This document shows, in pieces, positions 8,310 through 14,990 of a DNA stretch of 56,904 bases; positions within the stretch are counted from its first letter, which is position 1; each line of letters starts with the position of its first letter. Below the pieces are notes generated by a model. The model was not told the origin of the DNA and ran no database searches. It saw only the letters and a list, made by a program, of their open reading frames with translations. Source of the DNA: Flavobacteriales bacterium (GTDB lineage: Bacteria > Bacteroidota > Bacteroidia > Flavobacteriales_D > JAHECK01); the NCBI GenBank assembly GCA_024641785.1, contig JAHECK010000003.1, positions 1 to 56,904 of the forward strand, given 5' to 3'. Both the position numbers and the translations under genes were made by a program.

Positions 8310-8606
8310 ATGGAAAATAATTTTTTTCTAGAGATTAGAACCCCGGATAAAGAGTTGTTTCATGGTGAAATAGATCAAGTGATTTTACCGGGAAAAGATG
8401 GTTCTTTTGGAATATTAAAAAACCATGCTCCTCTTATTGCCAGTCTTACTAAAGGACGTGTAAAAGTTGATGCGATCCGTGTAATTAATATGGCGATTAA
8501 TCCTATTGAAGGGGATGTTGCTAAAAAGGAAAATCAGTATTTATTCGAAATTGATGGCGGAGTAGTTGAGGTTTTGAATAATCATGTTACAGTACTTGTA
8601 GGATAA
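8310..8606 (+). CDS. atpC: F1F0 ATP synthase subunit epsilon
   Basis: 98-aa ORF immediately after atpD. The N-terminal beta-sandwich motif (L.I.TP....F.G....V.LPG..G.FGIL..HAP.I) is typical of AtpC. Confidence 0.85.
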   Translation: MENNFFLEIRTPDKELFHGEIDQVILPGKDGSFGILKNHAPLIASLTKGRVKVDAIRVINMAINPIEGDVAKKENQYLFEIDGGVVEVLNNHVTVLVG

Positions 8607-8624
8607 ACAAACAAGATATAATTG

Positions 8625-8657
8625 AAAAAGCTACTCCTAAGAGTAGCTTTTTTTTTG
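8625..8657 (+). terminator. Rho-independent terminator after atpC
   Basis: The stem agctactc (8629-8636) / gagtagct (8641-8648) has the loop ctaa and is followed by a 9-nt T-run. Confidence 0.8.
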
Positions 8658-9030
8658 TCTTTTTTGTGGGAATCAGAACGAAGAGAATTTATTTGGAACG
8701 GAAGTGTTTCATTTTCCATTTTTTATCGAAATAATTGTCCTTTTTAAGGTCCTTTAGATAATAAAATCAAATGCTTCTAATTACTCAATTTTCAAGGAGT
8801 TTTTATTTGAATAATCGCTTTGTATAACAATAATGAAAAGTATTTATTCATCTAATGATTTTTATAATAAAACGTATCATTCTCCCTTGTACGAAATGTT
8901 TACTTTATGAGTATTTAGATATAATATTTCACCCTTACGATTATATTATAAATGATTGGAATAGGTCAAAAAACATCCTCAAAAACCTTATATATATAGA
9001 TATAAATGATTGTTTTGGCGAACTTAACCC

Positions 9031-9038
9031 TACTTTTG
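9031..9038 (+). promoter_or_regulatory. Candidate -7 box (TAnnTTTG) far upstream of lipoprotein pair 1
   Basis: This tacttttg is the only exact TAnnTTTG match I found in the 8658-9375 spacer. If used, it implies a ~330-nt 5' leader. Confidence 0.3.
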
Positions 9039-9268
9039 TAGAAGTAATTTCTTAAAATATAAAATCATGTTTAAAGGAATTGTCAATCGGCCGGATCTCT
9101 ATATCCGGGCCATGAAATAATCCGACAAATAAGATTGCTTTTCATTCAATCCTCAGTTTGAAAATAATCTTATAAAGTAGCTCGGTATAGTGGATGAGCT
9201 ATTCTTTCTTCCATGTTATTGCACATATTAAGGGATCAATACTAACTAAAAACCAAAGATCATGAAAA

Positions 9269-9362
9269 ATGATATCTCGGGTAGGTCAGTATCGGTTGTA
9301 ATAAGGTACTGACCACAGATTACTCTAATTTCGGATAGTGCATTGTGCACTATTTACCTAAC
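9269..9362 (+). promoter_or_regulatory. Conserved structured leader element upstream of lipoprotein pair 1 (12-nt box + hairpin A + hairpin B + tacctaac)
   Basis: The box atgatatctcgg is at 9269-9280. Hairpin A is GGTCAGTATC (9284-9293) / GGTACTGACC (9305-9314). Hairpin B is atagtgca (9335-9342) / tgcactat (9346-9353). The tacctaac box is at 9355-9362, 13 nt before the ATG. The same architecture recurs at 12386-12485 with compensatory substitutions. Confidence 0.5.
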
Positions 9363-9375
9363 CAAATCTATTATT

Positions 9376-10317
9376 ATGTTTAAAAATATGAAATTAATAG
9401 GAGTCATCTTTCTATCAATACTTCTATTAACAAATTGTAAAAAAGATGATAAAGTGGCCGATAATGGTCAAGGAGAAGTTGTTTTCTCACCTAATCAAAC
9501 TTCAAACTTTGAGAAAAGTGCAGAAAATAACTGTGAACTCGAGGTTTCCTACGCAATGGTTGTAGTGAATGAAATGACCTACAATCTTCCCGTGTTCTAT
9601 ATCGATGGAATGCTTACTACACAAGCGATTAAACTTAATGCAGGGGACTATATACTTGAAGAGTTTATTCTAATGAATGATAATGAAACTCCGGAAATCC
9701 TGGATGATGATATCGTAGTAATGTCTTCAGTAAATGAAGAGGGAGAATTCGAGAGTTATGTCGATATGACACTCCCTTATGAGTTTACTGTAGAAGCATT
9801 CTTGAAAGTAGAGCTTCATGTAGAAGTGATCTGTTATTATCCTGAATATTATGACTGGTACGGATTTGAATTTTTCACCGTATGGGTAACTAATATTCAT
9901 GAATGGTACTTCTTTGGAGATTTATGTCTTGAATATCCAGATCTATATGAAGGAAGCTTATATGAATTGCAAACTGAAGGTTTACAAGCCGACGTTCCAG
10001 CTATTTTTGAGATCGAAGTATGGCGAAATGAAGAATACCTTGGCACTTTCAGCAATGAAAGCTATCTGGGTGAAGAAATGCCATTGAAAGTAATTTATGC
10101 GGATAGGGTAGGAATAGAAGATAATTACGAATTCAAACTATACGTTCTTGTTAATGTAGGCGAAGGATTCGATTATGAATATTTCTATACCTGGGCATTT
10201 ACCGACCTTGCAGAGCTTGATATGGGAGAAGATGGAGTTACTGATTTCGTAATTGGTGACTGTGTGTATGATGGAATTGACCTTGTACTTCCACCTTGGA
10301 TGGATTATCCTAACTAA
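9376..10317 (+). CDS. Uncharacterised surface-lipoprotein family, 'short' member of pair 1
   Basis: The start is set at MFKNMKLIGVIFLSILLLTNC by alignment with the three paralogs. It has a lipobox LLTNC followed by KKDD. It is roughly four-fifths identical (by eye) to the N-terminal ~310 aa of the next gene and ends at ..LPPWMDYPN. Confidence 0.85.
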   Translation: MFKNMKLIGVIFLSILLLTNCKKDDKVADNGQGEVVFSPNQTSNFEKSAENNCELEVSYAMVVVNEMTYNLPVFYIDGMLTTQAIKLNAGDYILEEFILMNDNETPEILDDDIVVMSSVNEEGEFESYVDMTLPYEFTVEAFLKVELHVEVICYYPEYYDWYGFEFFTVWVTNIHEWYFFGDLCLEYPDLYEGSLYELQTEGLQADVPAIFEIEVWRNEEYLGTFSNESYLGEEMPLKVIYADRVGIEDNYEFKLYVLVNVGEGFDYEYFYTWAFTDLAELDMGEDGVTDFVIGDCVYDGIDLVLPPWMDYPN

Positions 10318-10328
10318 TAATTAGTGTT

Positions 10329-11747
10329 ATGATGAATAATTTGAGATTAATAGGGGTCATCTTTTTATCAGTTCTTCTATTAACGAATTGTAAAAAAGAT
10401 GATAAAGTGACCGATAATGGTCAGGGAGAAGTTGTTTTTTCAACTAATAAAACATCAAATTTTGATAAGAGTGCAGAATCTAACTGTGAGTTAACTGTTT
10501 CTTATGCATTTGTTGTAGTGAATGAAATGACCTATAACCTGCCTGTATTCTATATTGATGGAATGATCACTACACAAGCCATTAAGCTTGATGCAGGGGA
10601 TTATACATTAGAGGAATTTATTCTAATGAATGATAATGAAACTCCTGAAATATTGGATGACGATATCGTGGTAATGGCCTCTGTAAATGAAGAGGGAGAA
10701 TTTGCGAATTATGTGGAAATGACCCTCCCTTATGATTTTACTGTAGAAGCTTTCTTAAAAGTTGAGCTTCATGTAGAAGTGATCTGTTATTATCCTGAAT
10801 ATTATGACTGGTACGGATTCGAATTTTTCACTGTATGGGTAACAAATATTCATGAATGGTTCTTCTTCGGAGATCTATGTCTGAAAGCACCTTACGAATA
10901 CGAAGAAAGCTTATACGCTGAACAAAGTCAGGGATTGCAAGTAGATGTTCCTGCTATTTTTGAAATTGAAGTATGGCGAAATGAAGAATACCTCACTACC
11001 TTCAGCAATGAAAGTTTCTTAGGGGAAAACAATCCTCTAAAAATCACTTATGCTGATAGAGAAGGTATTTTGGATGAGTATGAGTTAAGACTTAATGTAC
11101 TCGTTAAAGTGGGTGACGGATTTGAATATGTTTATTTCTACAGCTGGTTCTTTACTGATGTAGCTGAGCTTCCTACAAATGGGGATGGTGTTACCGACTT
11201 TGTGATCGGAAACTGCGTATATGATGCACCCGACTTGTTATTAGCTCCTTGGATGAATCTTCCTATGGGAATTACATATGACTGTGTTCACCCTGGTGAA
11301 AATAGCTATTTCGATATCACTTTAAGCAATATCGGTCCTGGTTATGATATCCAAAATGGAGGTCCATACGAAGGATGGTGTGCTGATCTTGATAATACGA
11401 TCGGTCCTGGTGCCTATATAATGGATGCAAAAAGTTCATTATATCCTGAACTTCTACCGGGAGTATGGCAATTGAAAGGGCCTGCGTTGAATGCTTGTAA
11501 CTGGTTGTTTAACAATCTCGATAATTATGTATATACACCTGAAGAAATGCAAGATGCATTATGGTGCCTATTTGATGGCGTACCATGTACAGGTGTTGGT
11601 GCAACTATGGTTGCAGATGCATTGAATCATCAAGACTTCTCTCCTCTTCCAGGAGGATGGGCTGCGGTTCTATTCTTTGATGTGAATGATGATCCATTTA
11701 TTAATACGGATCATACTCAAATCACATTTTTCGTGGTAGATCCATAA
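10329..11747 (+). CDS. Uncharacterised surface-lipoprotein family, 'long' member of pair 1, with extra ~160-aa C-terminal Cys/Gln-motif module
   Basis: 472-aa ORF starting 11 nt after the short gene. It has the same signal peptide and lipobox. The C-terminal extension contains GWCADL (Cys351, nt 11379-11381) and EMQDALW (Gln408, nt 11550-11552). Confidence 0.88.
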   Translation: MMNNLRLIGVIFLSVLLLTNCKKDDKVTDNGQGEVVFSTNKTSNFDKSAESNCELTVSYAFVVVNEMTYNLPVFYIDGMITTQAIKLDAGDYTLEEFILMNDNETPEILDDDIVVMASVNEEGEFANYVEMTLPYDFTVEAFLKVELHVEVICYYPEYYDWYGFEFFTVWVTNIHEWFFFGDLCLKAPYEYEESLYAEQSQGLQVDVPAIFEIEVWRNEEYLTTFSNESFLGENNPLKITYADREGILDEYELRLNVLVKVGDGFEYVYFYSWFFTDVAELPTNGDGVTDFVIGNCVYDAPDLLLAPWMNLPMGITYDCVHPGENSYFDITLSNIGPGYDIQNGGPYEGWCADLDNTIGPGAYIMDAKSSLYPELLPGVWQLKGPALNACNWLFNNLDNYVYTPEEMQDALWCLFDGVPCTGVGATMVADALNHQDFSPLPGGWAAVLFFDVNDDPFINTDHTQITFFVVDP

Positions 11748-11772
11748 AGCGATCAACTAATTAATTAAAAGG

Positions 11773-11798
11773 AGAGGCGGACATTCCGCCTCTTTTTG
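11773..11798 (+). terminator. Rho-independent terminator after lipoprotein pair 1
   Basis: The stem agaggcgg (11773-11780) / ccgcctct (11786-11793) has the loop acatt and is followed by ttttt. Confidence 0.8.
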
Positions 11799-11868
11799 TT
11801 TCTGTATTTTTTTTTGATAGGATATTTTACTTAGATCAATTTTTGTTTTTAATTTTTAATTTTAGGAT

Positions 11869-11889
11869 AATTATCACAATGTGATAATT
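11869..11889. promoter_or_regulatory. Perfect 10-1-10 palindrome (candidate operator)
   Basis: The sequence aattatcaca-a-tgtgataatt is a perfect inverted repeat in the AT-rich spacer upstream of lipoprotein pair 2. Confidence 0.3.
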
Positions 11890-11998
11890 TTTCTAAACGC
11901 TATTTTATTTATAAGTAAGTGTTGTTTATTTTACACAAATAGCCATAATAAATAAATTGCTGTTAGACTTTTTGTATAAGCGTTTAACTAATATCAAT

Positions 11999-12006
11999 TA
12001 TGTTTG
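11999..12006 (+). promoter_or_regulatory. Candidate -7 box (TAnnTTTG) far upstream of lipoprotein pair 2
   Basis: The sequence tatgtttg is an exact TAnnTTTG match. If used, it implies a ~490-nt leader. Confidence 0.25.
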
Positions 12007-12385
12007 GCTAAAAACACATTTTAGCTATATAAAGCCTAAATTAATCGATAAAAAACTTGCTTTAGACGAAGTTTCTGTCGTAAATTTATACAACCTAACA
12101 ATTAAGAAAACCGCGCAACAATGAATTTAGATATAAAGGAAATGCCAGCTTAGAAAAACTGATGCTGGCATTTTATTCGCACAAAAAGAATACGATCTAA
12201 GTCCTCAAAAGTAATCCTCATTTCCGGATCGTATTTAACTCATAAGTAAATTGACTTTTATTTCAAACTCAAAATTCTTTGATATGGAAATAAATTATAT
12301 CGGCTCGAATAGGCTACAGTTTTAAGCCGCTGTAGCCCGCTCCTCAAGACTTTTATAGTATTCATTTAAACTCAGACTATGCAAT

Positions 12386-12485
12386 ATGATATCTCGGTAA
12401 GGCCGGTATCATGATCATCTGGTACCGGCCAAGCTACACCCAAGTTTAAAAATAAACAGTACCTAAAGGGTGCTGAATACCTAAC
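12386..12485 (+). promoter_or_regulatory. Conserved structured leader element upstream of lipoprotein pair 2 (homolog of 9269-9362)
   Basis: The box atgatatctcgg is at 12386-12397. Hairpin A is GGCCGGTATC (12401-12410) / GGTACCGGCC (12421-12430). Hairpin B is cagtacc (12457-12463) / ggtgctg (12469-12475) with one G-U pair. The tacctaac box is at 12478-12485, 14 nt before the ATG. Confidence 0.5.
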
Positions 12486-12499
12486 TTAAATTAATAAAC

Positions 12500-13468
12500 A
12501 TGTTTAAAAATATAAAACTAATAGGAGTGATTTTTTTATCCGTACTTCTATTAACTAATTGTAAAAAAGATAATAAAGACGACTCTATGTCTCCCGGTGA
12601 AATGGTATTTGCCGCTATAGACTACGATGATACTGAAAAGGATGGATTTGATTTTTTCTGTGATGAGAATTTAATCGTTCATCATGCATATATCGTTCTG
12701 GAAAATGAAGATGCAGTTGAAAGTATCCATGAACCATTGACTTTTACTTTGGATAATAAATTATATACACAAAGTATAAAATTGGCTCCGGGCGATTATA
12801 TTATTAAAGAATTTGCTCTAATGTCTGAAGATAATCAAGTCGTAAAAGCAACTCCAATGCTAGGAGCTGATTTTGATGAGTATGTTTCCAATCCTATTGA
12901 TGATCTAGTTGATTTTCATATTACTGCTTTTGAAAAAGCACAATATGCTATTGATGTGCTGTGTTATATTCCAGCTGAATGGGACAACTTTGGTTTCGAA
13001 TGGTTTGAAGTAACTGAGATCACATTGAGAGAACAATGCTTCTTTGGCGATATCTGTATCGATGATTTTAACGCCTATGCCGGATCATTGTATGATAACC
13101 CACTAGTGAATGATGAGGTTGCTATTTATAAAATTCTGGTTTTTCGTGATCGTATAGATAATCCTTCACCAGTAGGTATGTTCTATAACACATATTATGA
13201 AAATGATGTATTAATGTATAGATCACCACTTTGCGTTCAATATGCAGATTATGATCTTGATGTCAATAACTTCGAATTTGAGTTATGGATCTTAACCAAT
13301 TTTGGCTACGAAAAATTCCATGTCTGGACTTTCACTGATGCTGAAAGAATTCCAAGTAATAATTTTGATTATGTTCCCGGATATGATGACGGAGTAGTGG
13401 ATTTCGTATTTGGTGACTGTGTAGTAACTCCTTCCGATTTAGTGCTAACTGGTCCTATTCCTAATTAA
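12500..13468 (+). CDS. Uncharacterised surface-lipoprotein family, 'short' member of pair 2
   Basis: The 322-aa product starts MFKNIKLIGVIFLSVLLLTNCKKDNKDD. It shares the Cys pattern and motifs of the family (TQSIKL.PGDY, VLCY, FGFEWFEVTEIT.REQCFFGD.CI, DGVV.FV.G.CV). Confidence 0.85.
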   Translation: MFKNIKLIGVIFLSVLLLTNCKKDNKDDSMSPGEMVFAAIDYDDTEKDGFDFFCDENLIVHHAYIVLENEDAVESIHEPLTFTLDNKLYTQSIKLAPGDYIIKEFALMSEDNQVVKATPMLGADFDEYVSNPIDDLVDFHITAFEKAQYAIDVLCYIPAEWDNFGFEWFEVTEITLREQCFFGDICIDDFNAYAGSLYDNPLVNDEVAIYKILVFRDRIDNPSPVGMFYNTYYENDVLMYRSPLCVQYADYDLDVNNFEFELWILTNFGYEKFHVWTFTDAERIPSNNFDYVPGYDDGVVDFVFGDCVVTPSDLVLTGPIPN

Positions 13469-13517: not shown

Positions 13518-14990
13518 ATGTTGAACAATATAAAATTAATAGGAGTTATATTTCTTTCAATTCTCCTGTTAACAAACTGTAAGAAAGAAGTACAAGACAC
13601 GCAACAACCCGGTGAATTGGTATTTGCTGCGATTGATGTGAATACTGAAAAAGATGGTATCGATCAGTGGGATATTATGTGTAACGAAACCCTGATACCT
13701 GTTAAAGCTAGAGTAAATTTAAATGGTGAATTTTATTACCCAGCTCTCTTTATGTCAGAAGGAAAATTATTAACTCAAAGTATAAAACTTCCTCCTGGAG
13801 ACTATACAATTTTGGAGTTTAGTTTATTAACTGCAGATGATATCGTAGTGAAATCAACTCCGATGGAAGGGTCTGATTTTGCCGATTACGTTTCCAATCC
13901 TATCGATGGTGATGTTGACTTTACTATTGCATCATTTGTGAAAAGTGAATTTGAGATGGATGTTCTTTGTTACCTTCAAGCATATTATGAAAGCTTTGGT
14001 TTCGAATGGTTTGAAGTAACTGAAATTACCATTAGAGAACAATGCTTCTTTGGTGACTTCTGTATTAAAGATGTCAATCAATATGCACAATCATTGTACG
14101 GACTTAATGGAGTTACTATTGATGAAAAAGCGATTTTCAAAATTCGATTAAATAAGTTTGATAATGATTTGAACGAGTATGTTTATTATGCAGAATTCTA
14201 CAACTTTAATAATGGTGTTTATACATCCCCTTTATGTGTTGAATATGCAGATTATGACGCTACAGATGATTTTTACCAAGCTGAATTATGGATCTACGTT
14301 ACCAGTGGTGAAACCTGGGATTATGTTTATTTCCATACCTGGGATTTTCAAGATGCTGAAAGTATCGAAGAGCTTTATGGTGTTGGAAATGATGGAGTAG
14401 TAGAATTTGTGTTAGGTAATTGTGTCGATGACGAAACCGATCTATTATTACCTCCTTGGATGAATTTACCAACAGGACCTGATTATGATTTTACATTATC
14501 TAATGGTGGTGTTGGGCCTGATGCATACTGGCATATGACAATAGGTGGGATAAGTAGTTCACTTTATGATATGCAGAATGTTACTAATTATCCTGGATGG
14601 TGTGCAGATGAATTTACAACTATTGGTAATGGAACCATCTGTATGGATGCAATAAATTCTCTATATCCTGATATGTTACCAACTTATTGGTTAGATGCAA
14701 TCCCTAGTGGAGCTAATGCGCTTACAAGAAAACAAGCTATTTGTGCTGCAAACTGGTTGTGGAATAATGAAGCGATGTATGCACCATATACTTTTATGGA
14801 AATGCAAAATGCACTTTGGAATCTATTTAATAATTTAAATGTGGGGACTTCAGGTAAATCCTTTGTTATGGCTGATGCAGCCAGAGATCATCTTGATTAT
14901 TCACCATTGCCAGGTGGATGGGCCGCTATTTTCTTTGTGCCTTGTGATGATTCACAACTTCAAATGACCTTCTTCGTGGTTGATCCATGA
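13518..14990 (+). CDS. Uncharacterised surface-lipoprotein family, 'long' member of pair 2, with C-terminal Cys/Gln-motif module
   Basis: 490-aa ORF with the same signal peptide and lipobox. The C-terminal module has GWCADE (Cys362, nt 14601-14603) and EMQNALW (Gln430, nt 14805-14807). It ends in the shared motifs SPLPGGWAA and TFFVVDP. Confidence 0.88.
   Translation: MLNNIKLIGVIFLSILLLTNCKKEVQDTQQPGELVFAAIDVNTEKDGIDQWDIMCNETLIPVKARVNLNGEFYYPALFMSEGKLLTQSIKLPPGDYTILEFSLLTADDIVVKSTPMEGSDFADYVSNPIDGDVDFTIASFVKSEFEMDVLCYLQAYYESFGFEWFEVTEITIREQCFFGDFCIKDVNQYAQSLYGLNGVTIDEKAIFKIRLNKFDNDLNEYVYYAEFYNFNNGVYTSPLCVEYADYDATDDFYQAELWIYVTSGETWDYVYFHTWDFQDAESIEELYGVGNDGVVEFVLGNCVDDETDLLLPPWMNLPTGPDYDFTLSNGGVGPDAYWHMTIGGISSSLYDMQNVTNYPGWCADEFTTIGNGTICMDAINSLYPDMLPTYWLDAIPSGANALTRKQAICAANWLWNNEAMYAPYTFMEMQNALWNLFNNLNVGTSGKSFVMADAARDHLDYSPLPGGWAAIFFVPCDDSQLQMTFFVVDP

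Follow-up and report, generated by a model that had tools for sequence, protein, structure and literature searches.

Upstream of each of two pairs of lipoprotein genes in a 56,904-nucleotide (nt) stretch of DNA from a Flavobacteriales bacterium (contig JAHECK010000003.1 of assembly GCA_024641785.1; this whole stretch is called the window below), we found two hairpins, A and B, whose base pairing has been maintained by selection through compensated changes and changes with G·U intermediates. Each copy of the element stands before the short, first gene of a pair and comprises a box (box 1), hairpin A, hairpin B, and a second box (box 2). The mismatches tolerated in hairpin A indicate that selection has acted on the + strand in single-stranded form, and the element is specific to one lipoprotein gene family, is confined to a single genus-level clade of uncultured Bacteroidota, and is present three times per genome. 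Our best reading is that these sequences may encode a narrow, lineage-specific, cis-acting leader RNA, one that would serve mRNA stability, translation, or the binding of a factor and would be neither a riboswitch, nor a thermometer, nor an attenuator.

Pairing of hairpins A and B is maintained by selection

The arrangement of boxes and hairpins had been described in an earlier note on this DNA, which proposed that selected pairing in the 5' leader acts as RNA (or as a cruciform), and all of its coordinates for box 1, hairpins A and B, and box 2 held on our reading of the window (Table 1). Between the two window copies, box 1 (ATGATATCTCGG) is identical at 12/12 positions and the hairpin A arms at 16/20, the four differences being the two compensated pairs that the note had pointed out; the hairpin A loops are unrelated. 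We set this conservation against the divergence of the short genes themselves. For a genome of 35% G+C, the synonymous sites of the two short-gene paralogs are saturated (four-fold sites identical 14/34; third codon positions 38%), which makes them old paralogs, and the conserved box and stems therefore stand out from the background. The box 1 12-mer occurs three times in the 3.3-megabase genome, namely in the two window copies and once in an unrelated coding region, and 0.27 matches with at most one mismatch are expected by chance within the window. Both ~120-nt leaders fold more stably than 200/200 dinucleotide shuffles (z = -3.0 for copy 1 and -4.3 for copy 2).

A covariance model (CM) of hairpins A and B with their flanks (R2) recovers 19 leaders, which come from the genome of the window (G000), from a genus-mate (G001, with the GenBank label Flavobacteriales bacterium CSMAG_231), and from metagenome contigs. 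The note had proposed looking for the pairing in orthologous leaders, and it holds across these 19. When 16 leaders were aligned with MAFFT, blind to structure, 99.4% of the hairpin A cells were paired, compared with 28-47% when the 3' partners are slid, and the figure in the CM alignment of 19 leaders is 98.4%. Double-sided changes occur at three hairpin A pairs in the 16-leader alignment (CG<->UA in five sequences, AU<->GC in three, and GC<->AU in one), and G·U intermediates of these changes are seen in related sequences. About 10 distinct hairpin A stem sequences exist, all of which pair, and manual parsimony over evident ortholog groups gives at least four independent compensated events. 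In the 19-leader CM alignment, which was fitted to the model and is therefore biased towards the structure, hairpin B has double-sided changes at four pairs (AU<->GC in 6 cells and GC<->AU in 5); double changes are found at 7 pairs and in 23 cells of that alignment, and its covariation score of 0.336, against a shuffled mean of 0.252, was reached by 0/500 shuffles. RNAalifold, run on the 16 leaders from -150 to +75, found hairpins A and B independently and nothing else of note.

The mismatch spectrum is the most telling point for a single strand of + polarity, that is, for RNA. Hairpin A in the 16 leaders comprises 136 Watson-Crick cells, 23 G·U, no A·C, and 1 other, and across the 19 leaders the mismatches include 25 G·U and again no A·C. 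In duplex DNA, or if the opposite strand were the one under selection, transitions would give rise to as many A·C as G·T mismatches, and thus the G·U-only bias argues that selection acts on the single-stranded + strand. On this bias we rejected a minus-strand RNA, as well as a cruciform or double-stranded palindromic operator, since the arms covary rather than remain constant; the note's cruciform alternative is thereby ruled out. Its core proposal, in which selected pairing in a 5' leader acts as RNA, emerges much strengthened by the 19 leaders, the 98-99% pairing, the double changes, and the G·U skew. With covarying helices on the sense strand, located between a candidate promoter and the start codon, the element would fall into the generic class of structured cis-acting 5' leader RNAs, on the presumption that it is transcribed.

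A candidate long leader and its distal module

The earlier note had taken the architecture to span ~110 nt. That architecture is real, but it appears to be only the proximal part of a considerably longer leader that carries a second, homologous module. The sigma-A -7 consensus is TAnnTTTG (PMC9723704), and the only positionally conserved sigma-A-like -7 box in our full-length alignment is a TAnnTTT(G/A) box located 345-444 nt upstream of the ATG, which is present in 13/16 leaders. In the 750 nt preceding the ATG of leader 1, its box (TACTTTTG) is the sole TAnnTTTG. In leader 2 the positionally conserved box is TAAATTTA; an exact TATGTTTG also occurs at 11999-12006, a position at which neither L060 nor contig C208 has an equivalent. 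We infer that transcription may start at the conserved TAnnTTT(G/A) box, which would place the hairpins within a leader of 330-430 nt.

Two further features lie near the candidate promoters. A conserved A-rich stretch containing ATCGAT (window 12043-12056, TTAATCGATAAAAA) is found ~30-40 nt upstream of the candidate -7 box and could be a transcription-factor or UP-like site. Among the lipoprotein leaders, this stretch together with the nearby -7 box pattern occurs only at 12043 and on contig C208, and two unrelated sites also carry it. A 66-amino-acid open reading frame (ORF) at 8855-9055 overlaps the candidate promoter region of leader 1 and is probably spurious.

Downstream of the -7 box, the leaders share a conserved CGCGCAACAATG motif and a GCCRG...CYGGC hairpin, which by inspection is present in 16/16 leaders; the leader 2 version is an inverted repeat (I17) with 100% complementarity. 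The ATG of this distal module is invariant in the 16-leader alignments, and TTG stands at that position in L148. The distal module is similar to box 1 and hairpin A taken together, and a CM of these two parts (R1) weakly matches the homologous distal position in 5 loci, including 12117-12173. From these likenesses, the leader seems to consist of two tandem homologous modules, each with the series CTAAC / AAAACCG / ATG / box / GCCRG-hairpin. Between the two modules lie further, group-specific helices, one of which (GGCTACAG/CTGTAGCC) has the compensated variants GGCCGTAG/CTGCGGTC and GGCTGTAG/CTACAGCC, along with a conserved unpaired stretch (ATACTAACTAAAAACC) that has no other intergenic-leader occurrence in the genome. 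We rejected a long-range alternative pairing between the distal and proximal modules. By inspection, covariation of the variable R/Y positions stays inside the individual hairpins, and therefore it is the local hairpins that are kept, not a long-range helix.

Table 1. Features of the two lipoprotein loci and their leaders, in window coordinates
Feature	Position	Strand	Description
Box 1, copy 1	9269-9280	+	ATGATATCTCGG; 12 nt
Box 1, copy 2	12386-12397	+	ATGATATCTCGG
Hairpin A, copy 1	9284-9293/9305-9314	+	GGTCAGTATC/GGTACTGACC; stem of 10 base pairs (bp), 11-nt loop
Hairpin A, copy 2	12401-12410/12421-12430	+	GGCCGGTATC/GGTACCGGCC; 10-bp stem, 10-nt loop; inverted repeat I19
Hairpin B, copy 1	9335-9353 (9334-9354 at widest)	+	8-9 bp stem, 3-nt loop
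Hairpin B, copy 2	12457-12475	+	CAGTACC(T)/(G)GGTGCTG
Box 2, copy 1	9355-9362	+	TACCTAAC; 13 nt to ATG 9376
Box 2, copy 2	12478-12485	+	TACCTAAC; 14 nt to ATG 12500
Candidate sigma-A -7 box, leader 1	9031-9038	+	TACTTTTG; would imply a ~330-nt leader
Candidate -7 box, leader 2	12081-12088	+	TAAATTTA; positionally conserved; would imply a ~410-nt leader
Distal module, leader 1	9067-9111	+	Conserved ATG 9067-9069; hairpin GGCCGGAT/ATCC(G)GGCC at 9089-9111
Distal module, leader 2	12121-12173	+	ATG 12121-12123; hairpin AAATGCCAGC/GCTGGCATTT at 12140-12173
Leader helix	9129-9173	+	ATAAGATTGCTTT...AAAATAATCTTAT; inverted repeat I9; RNAalifold in c1 and L075 groups
Leader helix	9178-9201	+	TAGCTC...GAGCTA; RNAalifold in c1 and L075 groups
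Conserved unpaired stretch	9239-9254	+	ATACTAACTAAAAACC; kept across most leaders
Leader hairpin	12312-12337	+	GGCTACAG/CTGTAGCC; in c2, L075, and C181 leader types (3/4); absent from c1
Short lipoprotein gene 1	9376-10317	+	Heads pair 1; signal peptide and lipobox are conserved
Long gene of pair 1	10329-11747	+	Follows short gene 1
Short lipoprotein gene 2	12500-13468	+	First gene of pair 2
Long gene of pair 2	13518-14990	+	Follows short gene 2
Intrinsic terminator of atpC	8624-8653	+	13-bp stem, then T run; upstream boundary of transcription unit 1
Intrinsic terminator after the long gene of pair 1	11769-11797	+	13-bp stem, then T run; upstream boundary of transcription unit 2

Gene context and distribution

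Intrinsic terminators lie upstream of both gene pairs (Table 1), and a terminator scan found none inside the leaders (9056-9375 and 12100-12499); each pair is thus its own transcription unit. A Pfam search of the lipoproteins matched no family. The mature parts of the short paralogs share ~37% protein identity (108/272 aligned residues), and the DNA encoding their signal peptide and lipobox (9376-9447 versus 12500-12571) is identical at 64/72 positions (89%); nucleotide-level constraint or gene conversion may be a cause of this identity at the 5' end. Because the signal peptide is conserved, we take the ATG at 9376 to be the real start of short gene 1. The mechanical ORF list also contains a TTG start at 9343, inside hairpin B (ORF 9343-10317), which is probably an artifact.

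Among 61 related genomes, the lipoprotein family was found only in G000 and G001, and wider scans yielded ~120 more distant homolog loci in metagenome-assembled genomes (MAGs) of Bacteroidales, Lentimicrobiaceae, Prolixibacteraceae, and Marinilabiliales and in metagenomes. The R1 model matched 16 distinct sites, three of them in G000 (window 9258, window 12375, and contig C208), three in G001, and 10 on metagenome contigs, and look-ups by protein identity added the leaders L146/L147 and L148. The R1 match begins 112-126 nt ahead of the start codon of each unit's first gene, with box 1 beginning 11 nt into the match, and no second gene of a pair was preceded by the element. Box 1 is kept in most of the 19 leaders and is degenerate in C181-type copies, and about half of the leaders have the box 2 sequence ACCTAAC.

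A regulon search found no other gene in the rest of G000 with box 1, the distal CGCGCAACAATG motif, the TACTAAC stretch, or the hairpin pattern. The motif was likewise absent from 299 other genomes of the order; outside the genus only three weak matches appeared, all of them within coding sequences of genomes with higher GC, and we took these as chance. Searches with R1 and R2 also found no motif upstream of the distant homologs (L013-L058 and L064-L125, from Bacteroidales, Lentimicrobiaceae, and Prolixibacteraceae MAGs), in which a canonical TAnnTTTG box stands 70-90 nt ahead of the ATG and the leader is A-rich and unstructured. Given these ordinary promoters and unstructured leaders, the long structured leader looks like a clade-specific addition.

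The lipoprotein leader of one metagenomic sub-lineage is flanked on its upstream side by genes for an Hpt protein and a divergent sigma-54-activator response regulator (L146, 529-2233, minus strand), and L085 probably has the same arrangement. This neighbor is not conserved at other loci, and in G001 the neighbor is a TPR protein. Since a sigma-54 activator gene adjoins the locus in this sub-lineage, we ran a relaxed scan of 19 upstream regions for the sigma-54 pattern TGGCAC-N5-TTGC, with GG and GC 10 nt apart. No leader contained a match, and the single match, in L146, falls beyond the leader, at 620 nt from the ATG on the upstream side; we therefore rejected a sigma-54 promoter.

Possible functions and known counterparts

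We lean towards a reading in which hairpins A and B are + strand RNA stem-loops in the 5' leader of each surface-lipoprotein messenger RNA (mRNA), where they would form a post-transcriptional module that is bound by a trans-acting factor or stabilizes the mRNA. The hairpin pair, together with the conserved single-stranded box 5' of hairpin A, could exert such control in two modes. A trans-acting protein or small RNA (sRNA) might bind box 1 together with the stem of hairpin A, whose sequence is conserved, and such a site, which the earlier note had offered for a protein, is possible. Alternatively, the hairpins might act as a decay barrier once the long leader has been processed in the AU-rich box; hairpin A would then stand 3 nt from the newly formed 5' end. 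In both modes the module would determine how much lipoprotein mRNA is present or how long it lasts, with the start site not occluded.

Several observations weigh against this reading. Only ~19 sequences from one narrow clade are available, with few independent compensatory events (at least four in hairpin A). The most divergent copy, L075:54-197, which was found with R2, keeps both hairpins but lacks box 1, and so box 1 may not be essential; the analysis also yielded no candidate trans-acting factor. The last letter of most positionally conserved -7 boxes is A and not the consensus G, and two leaders carry an exact TAATTTTG in the interval from hairpin A to hairpin B, at -50/-52 (G1_c1, at about 2951-2958 of L012, and L075, at about 2567-2574), where the other leaders have a degenerate TAATTT. 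With TAATTTTG as the main promoter, the transcript would begin downstream of hairpin A; TAATTTTG could instead be a second, proximal promoter. The transcription start, processing, and function given here for the leader are putative and read from sequence.

Comparison with known RNA classes gave no assignment. Rfam 15 (4227 models) gave 0 matches at gathering score over the whole window, in keeping with the earlier note, which had recognized no known riboswitch class. At E values up to 10 over 8600-12600, the only matches overlapping the element were at chance level, namely sRNA162, an archaeal sRNA that was the best sub-threshold match (28.4 bits versus 78), and mir-5912 (16.9 versus 88). An intrinsic terminator or attenuator was rejected, since no T run follows hairpin A or B on the 3' side. 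In the RNAalifold consensus there is no pairing beyond hairpin B as far as +25, a stretch that includes -25 to +25 around the AUG; no helix in this fold sequesters the start region, and we therefore rejected an RNA thermometer or translational platform, leaving the thermometer suggested in the note unsupported. We also discarded a P0 helix around box 1 (AUCAUG/UAUGAU plus CCGA/UCGG), which was 73% paired and no better than shuffles (95/500).

Other explanations would assign the conserved features a different role. Ribosomes might start at the conserved proximal and distal AUGs, translate into the 5' arm of the hairpin, and remodel it, thereby tuning downstream transcription (e.g., by Rho protection) or translation. 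An ATG precedes box 1 by 5-7 nt in 14 of the first 16 leaders (the exceptions are the C181-type G1_C181 and L100), an invariant one heads the distal module in the 16-leader alignments, and the proximal, distal, and real start ATGs all have A at -3 and an A-rich context, in a phylum that does not use Shine-Dalgarno sites (PMC9723704). By manual reading, the stop falls in the hairpin loop in several copies (e.g., MQYDISVRPVS*, MYYDRSGWPVS*, and MKYDISGWPVL*). However, these upstream ORFs range from 5 to 33 codons, with stops upstream of the hairpin, within it, or far beyond it; the proximal ATG is missing from L100, just as L148 has TTG for the distal one; and the variation is nucleotide-like, not codon-like, with TCG kept rather than swapped for synonymous codons and 1/6 changed codons synonymous between G1_C181 and L100. 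As there is also no terminator and no alternative pairing, we rejected a leader-peptide attenuator and consider upstream-ORF coupling unlikely, although leader translation as such may have a role in a phylum without Shine-Dalgarno sites. Somewhat less improbable, but still doubtful, is a new class of cis-regulatory leader RNA for surface (possibly thioester-adhesin) lipoproteins in uncultured marine Bacteroidota, in which two tandem modules of start codon, box, and hairpin would set expression by ribosome loading on the leader or through a dedicated RNA-binding factor. We find it highly improbable that the element is a new metabolite- or ion-sensing riboswitch, whose aptamer would be a junction of box 1, hairpins A and B, and box 2. 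Minimum-free-energy folds of both window copies do close the hairpins with a short helix from the end of box 1 to box 2 (P1), and the helices are flanked by conserved unpaired boxes, yet P1 is paired in 70% of cells, has two of its four pairs broken in 6-8/16 sequences, and lacks convincing covariation. Both hairpin loops and most of the inter-hairpin linker are unconserved, there is no expression platform (no terminator and no start-site occlusion), no Rfam family matches, and the element is confined to one genus-level clade and one surface-lipoprotein family without a metabolic link. The riboswitch aptamer, and with it the riboswitch-like class that the earlier note had raised, is therefore not supported.

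Explanations at the level of DNA, or without any function, account for some of the same sequence features. The hairpins could be a palindromic operator for a dimeric factor acting on a promoter between hairpins A and B, or single-stranded DNA hairpins from an IS200/IS605-type element. The 10-bp arms, 10-11 bp apart, would place half-sites two helical turns apart, the exact TAATTTTG lies 50-52 nt before the ATG in two leaders, and two similar hairpin modules in direct orientation ~280 nt apart are reminiscent of transposon ends. An operator, however, is expected to keep its half-sites rather than let them covary and to show G·T and A·C equally, which does not fit the mismatch counts of hairpin A, and conservation of the proximal -7-like box does not extend to leaders of the c2 or C181 type. 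There are also only three copies per genome, in a constant gene context and diverging together with the genes, with no transposase nearby, and we regard a DNA-level element as very unlikely. An invertible promoter was also rejected, as only AT-rich, 71-85% complementary chance pairs span the leaders and there are no long flanking inverted repeats. The element could, in turn, be a functionless relic of tandem duplications of the gene's 5' end, its apparent conservation being due to gene conversion among paralogs, which we find barely credible. Direct repeats link the leaders to the gene starts (9055-9075 versus 9364-9384, 81%; 12441-12454 versus 12499-12512, 93%) and hint that the leader modules may come from duplication of the 5' gene end, and the near identity of the signal-peptide DNA could reflect conversion. 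However, conservation is patchy rather than block-wise, with box 1 intact, loops unrelated, and stems compensated, and the ~10 different stem sequences still pair, with a G·U-only mismatch spectrum. A search of the leaders with a gene-start profile in nhmmer was not significant, and with only short repeats in its support we rejected an origin of the leader modules from gene-start duplication.

The element is a new, well-supported, and narrowly distributed structured leader motif among the orphan cis-acting RNAs of 5' untranslated regions (UTRs), and the kind itself is not surprising. Post-transcriptional control is poorly charted in the Bacteroidota, a phylum with unusual promoters and no Shine-Dalgarno-based initiation, and the motif offers a small, testable entry into the control of surface-protein mRNAs, be it through stability, factor binding, or upstream-ORF effects. 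Its reach is narrow, as it is limited to three copies in each genome of a single genus-level clade of uncultured sediment bacteria, and its general impact is modest. If the two-module ribosome-loading reading were true, it would represent a principle of translation-coupled control suited to a phylum without Shine-Dalgarno sites.

Several known systems resemble the element in part. Leader-peptide attenuators (trp, his, thr, and phe) share with it a short ORF that starts just upstream of a hairpin and runs into it, but here there are no runs of regulatory codons, no conserved peptide or ORF length, and no terminator/antiterminator pair. Riboswitches and RNA thermometers likewise have conserved 5' leader helices flanked by conserved unpaired boxes, whereas this element has no supported multi-helix junction, unconserved loops, no expression platform, and a free AUG. 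In Bacteroides, capsule loci have long 5' leaders on which UpxY antiterminators act. The lipoprotein loci are similar in being paralogous surface-structure loci that each have their own long leader, which could give locus-specific control, but they contain no UpxY- or UpxZ-like gene, and no test result links the hairpins to antitermination.

The ompA-type 5' UTR stabilizer of Escherichia coli is a leader of ~120-130 nt with two stem-loops, single-stranded segments, and an open start region. It precedes the gene for an abundant envelope protein, and its hairpin near the 5' end protects the mRNA. Our element is like it in its length of about 120-130 nt, two stem-loops with single-stranded segments between them, envelope protein gene, and open start region, with proximity to the 5' end only hypothesized here. 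It differs in that the two are unrelated in sequence, in that the hairpins here would lie inside a leader of 330-430 nt, and in that this phylum has different translation signals and RNA chaperones. Flavo-1 and the Bacteroid-trp leader are orphan, lineage-restricted RNA motifs of the Bacteroidota in Rfam. In contrast to these, our motif falls below every Rfam gathering score and is tied to a single lipoprotein family. It shares with them a small size, a structure defined by covariation, confinement to part of the phylum, and a role inferred from gene context, and it would add one family to the catalog of orphan structured RNAs.

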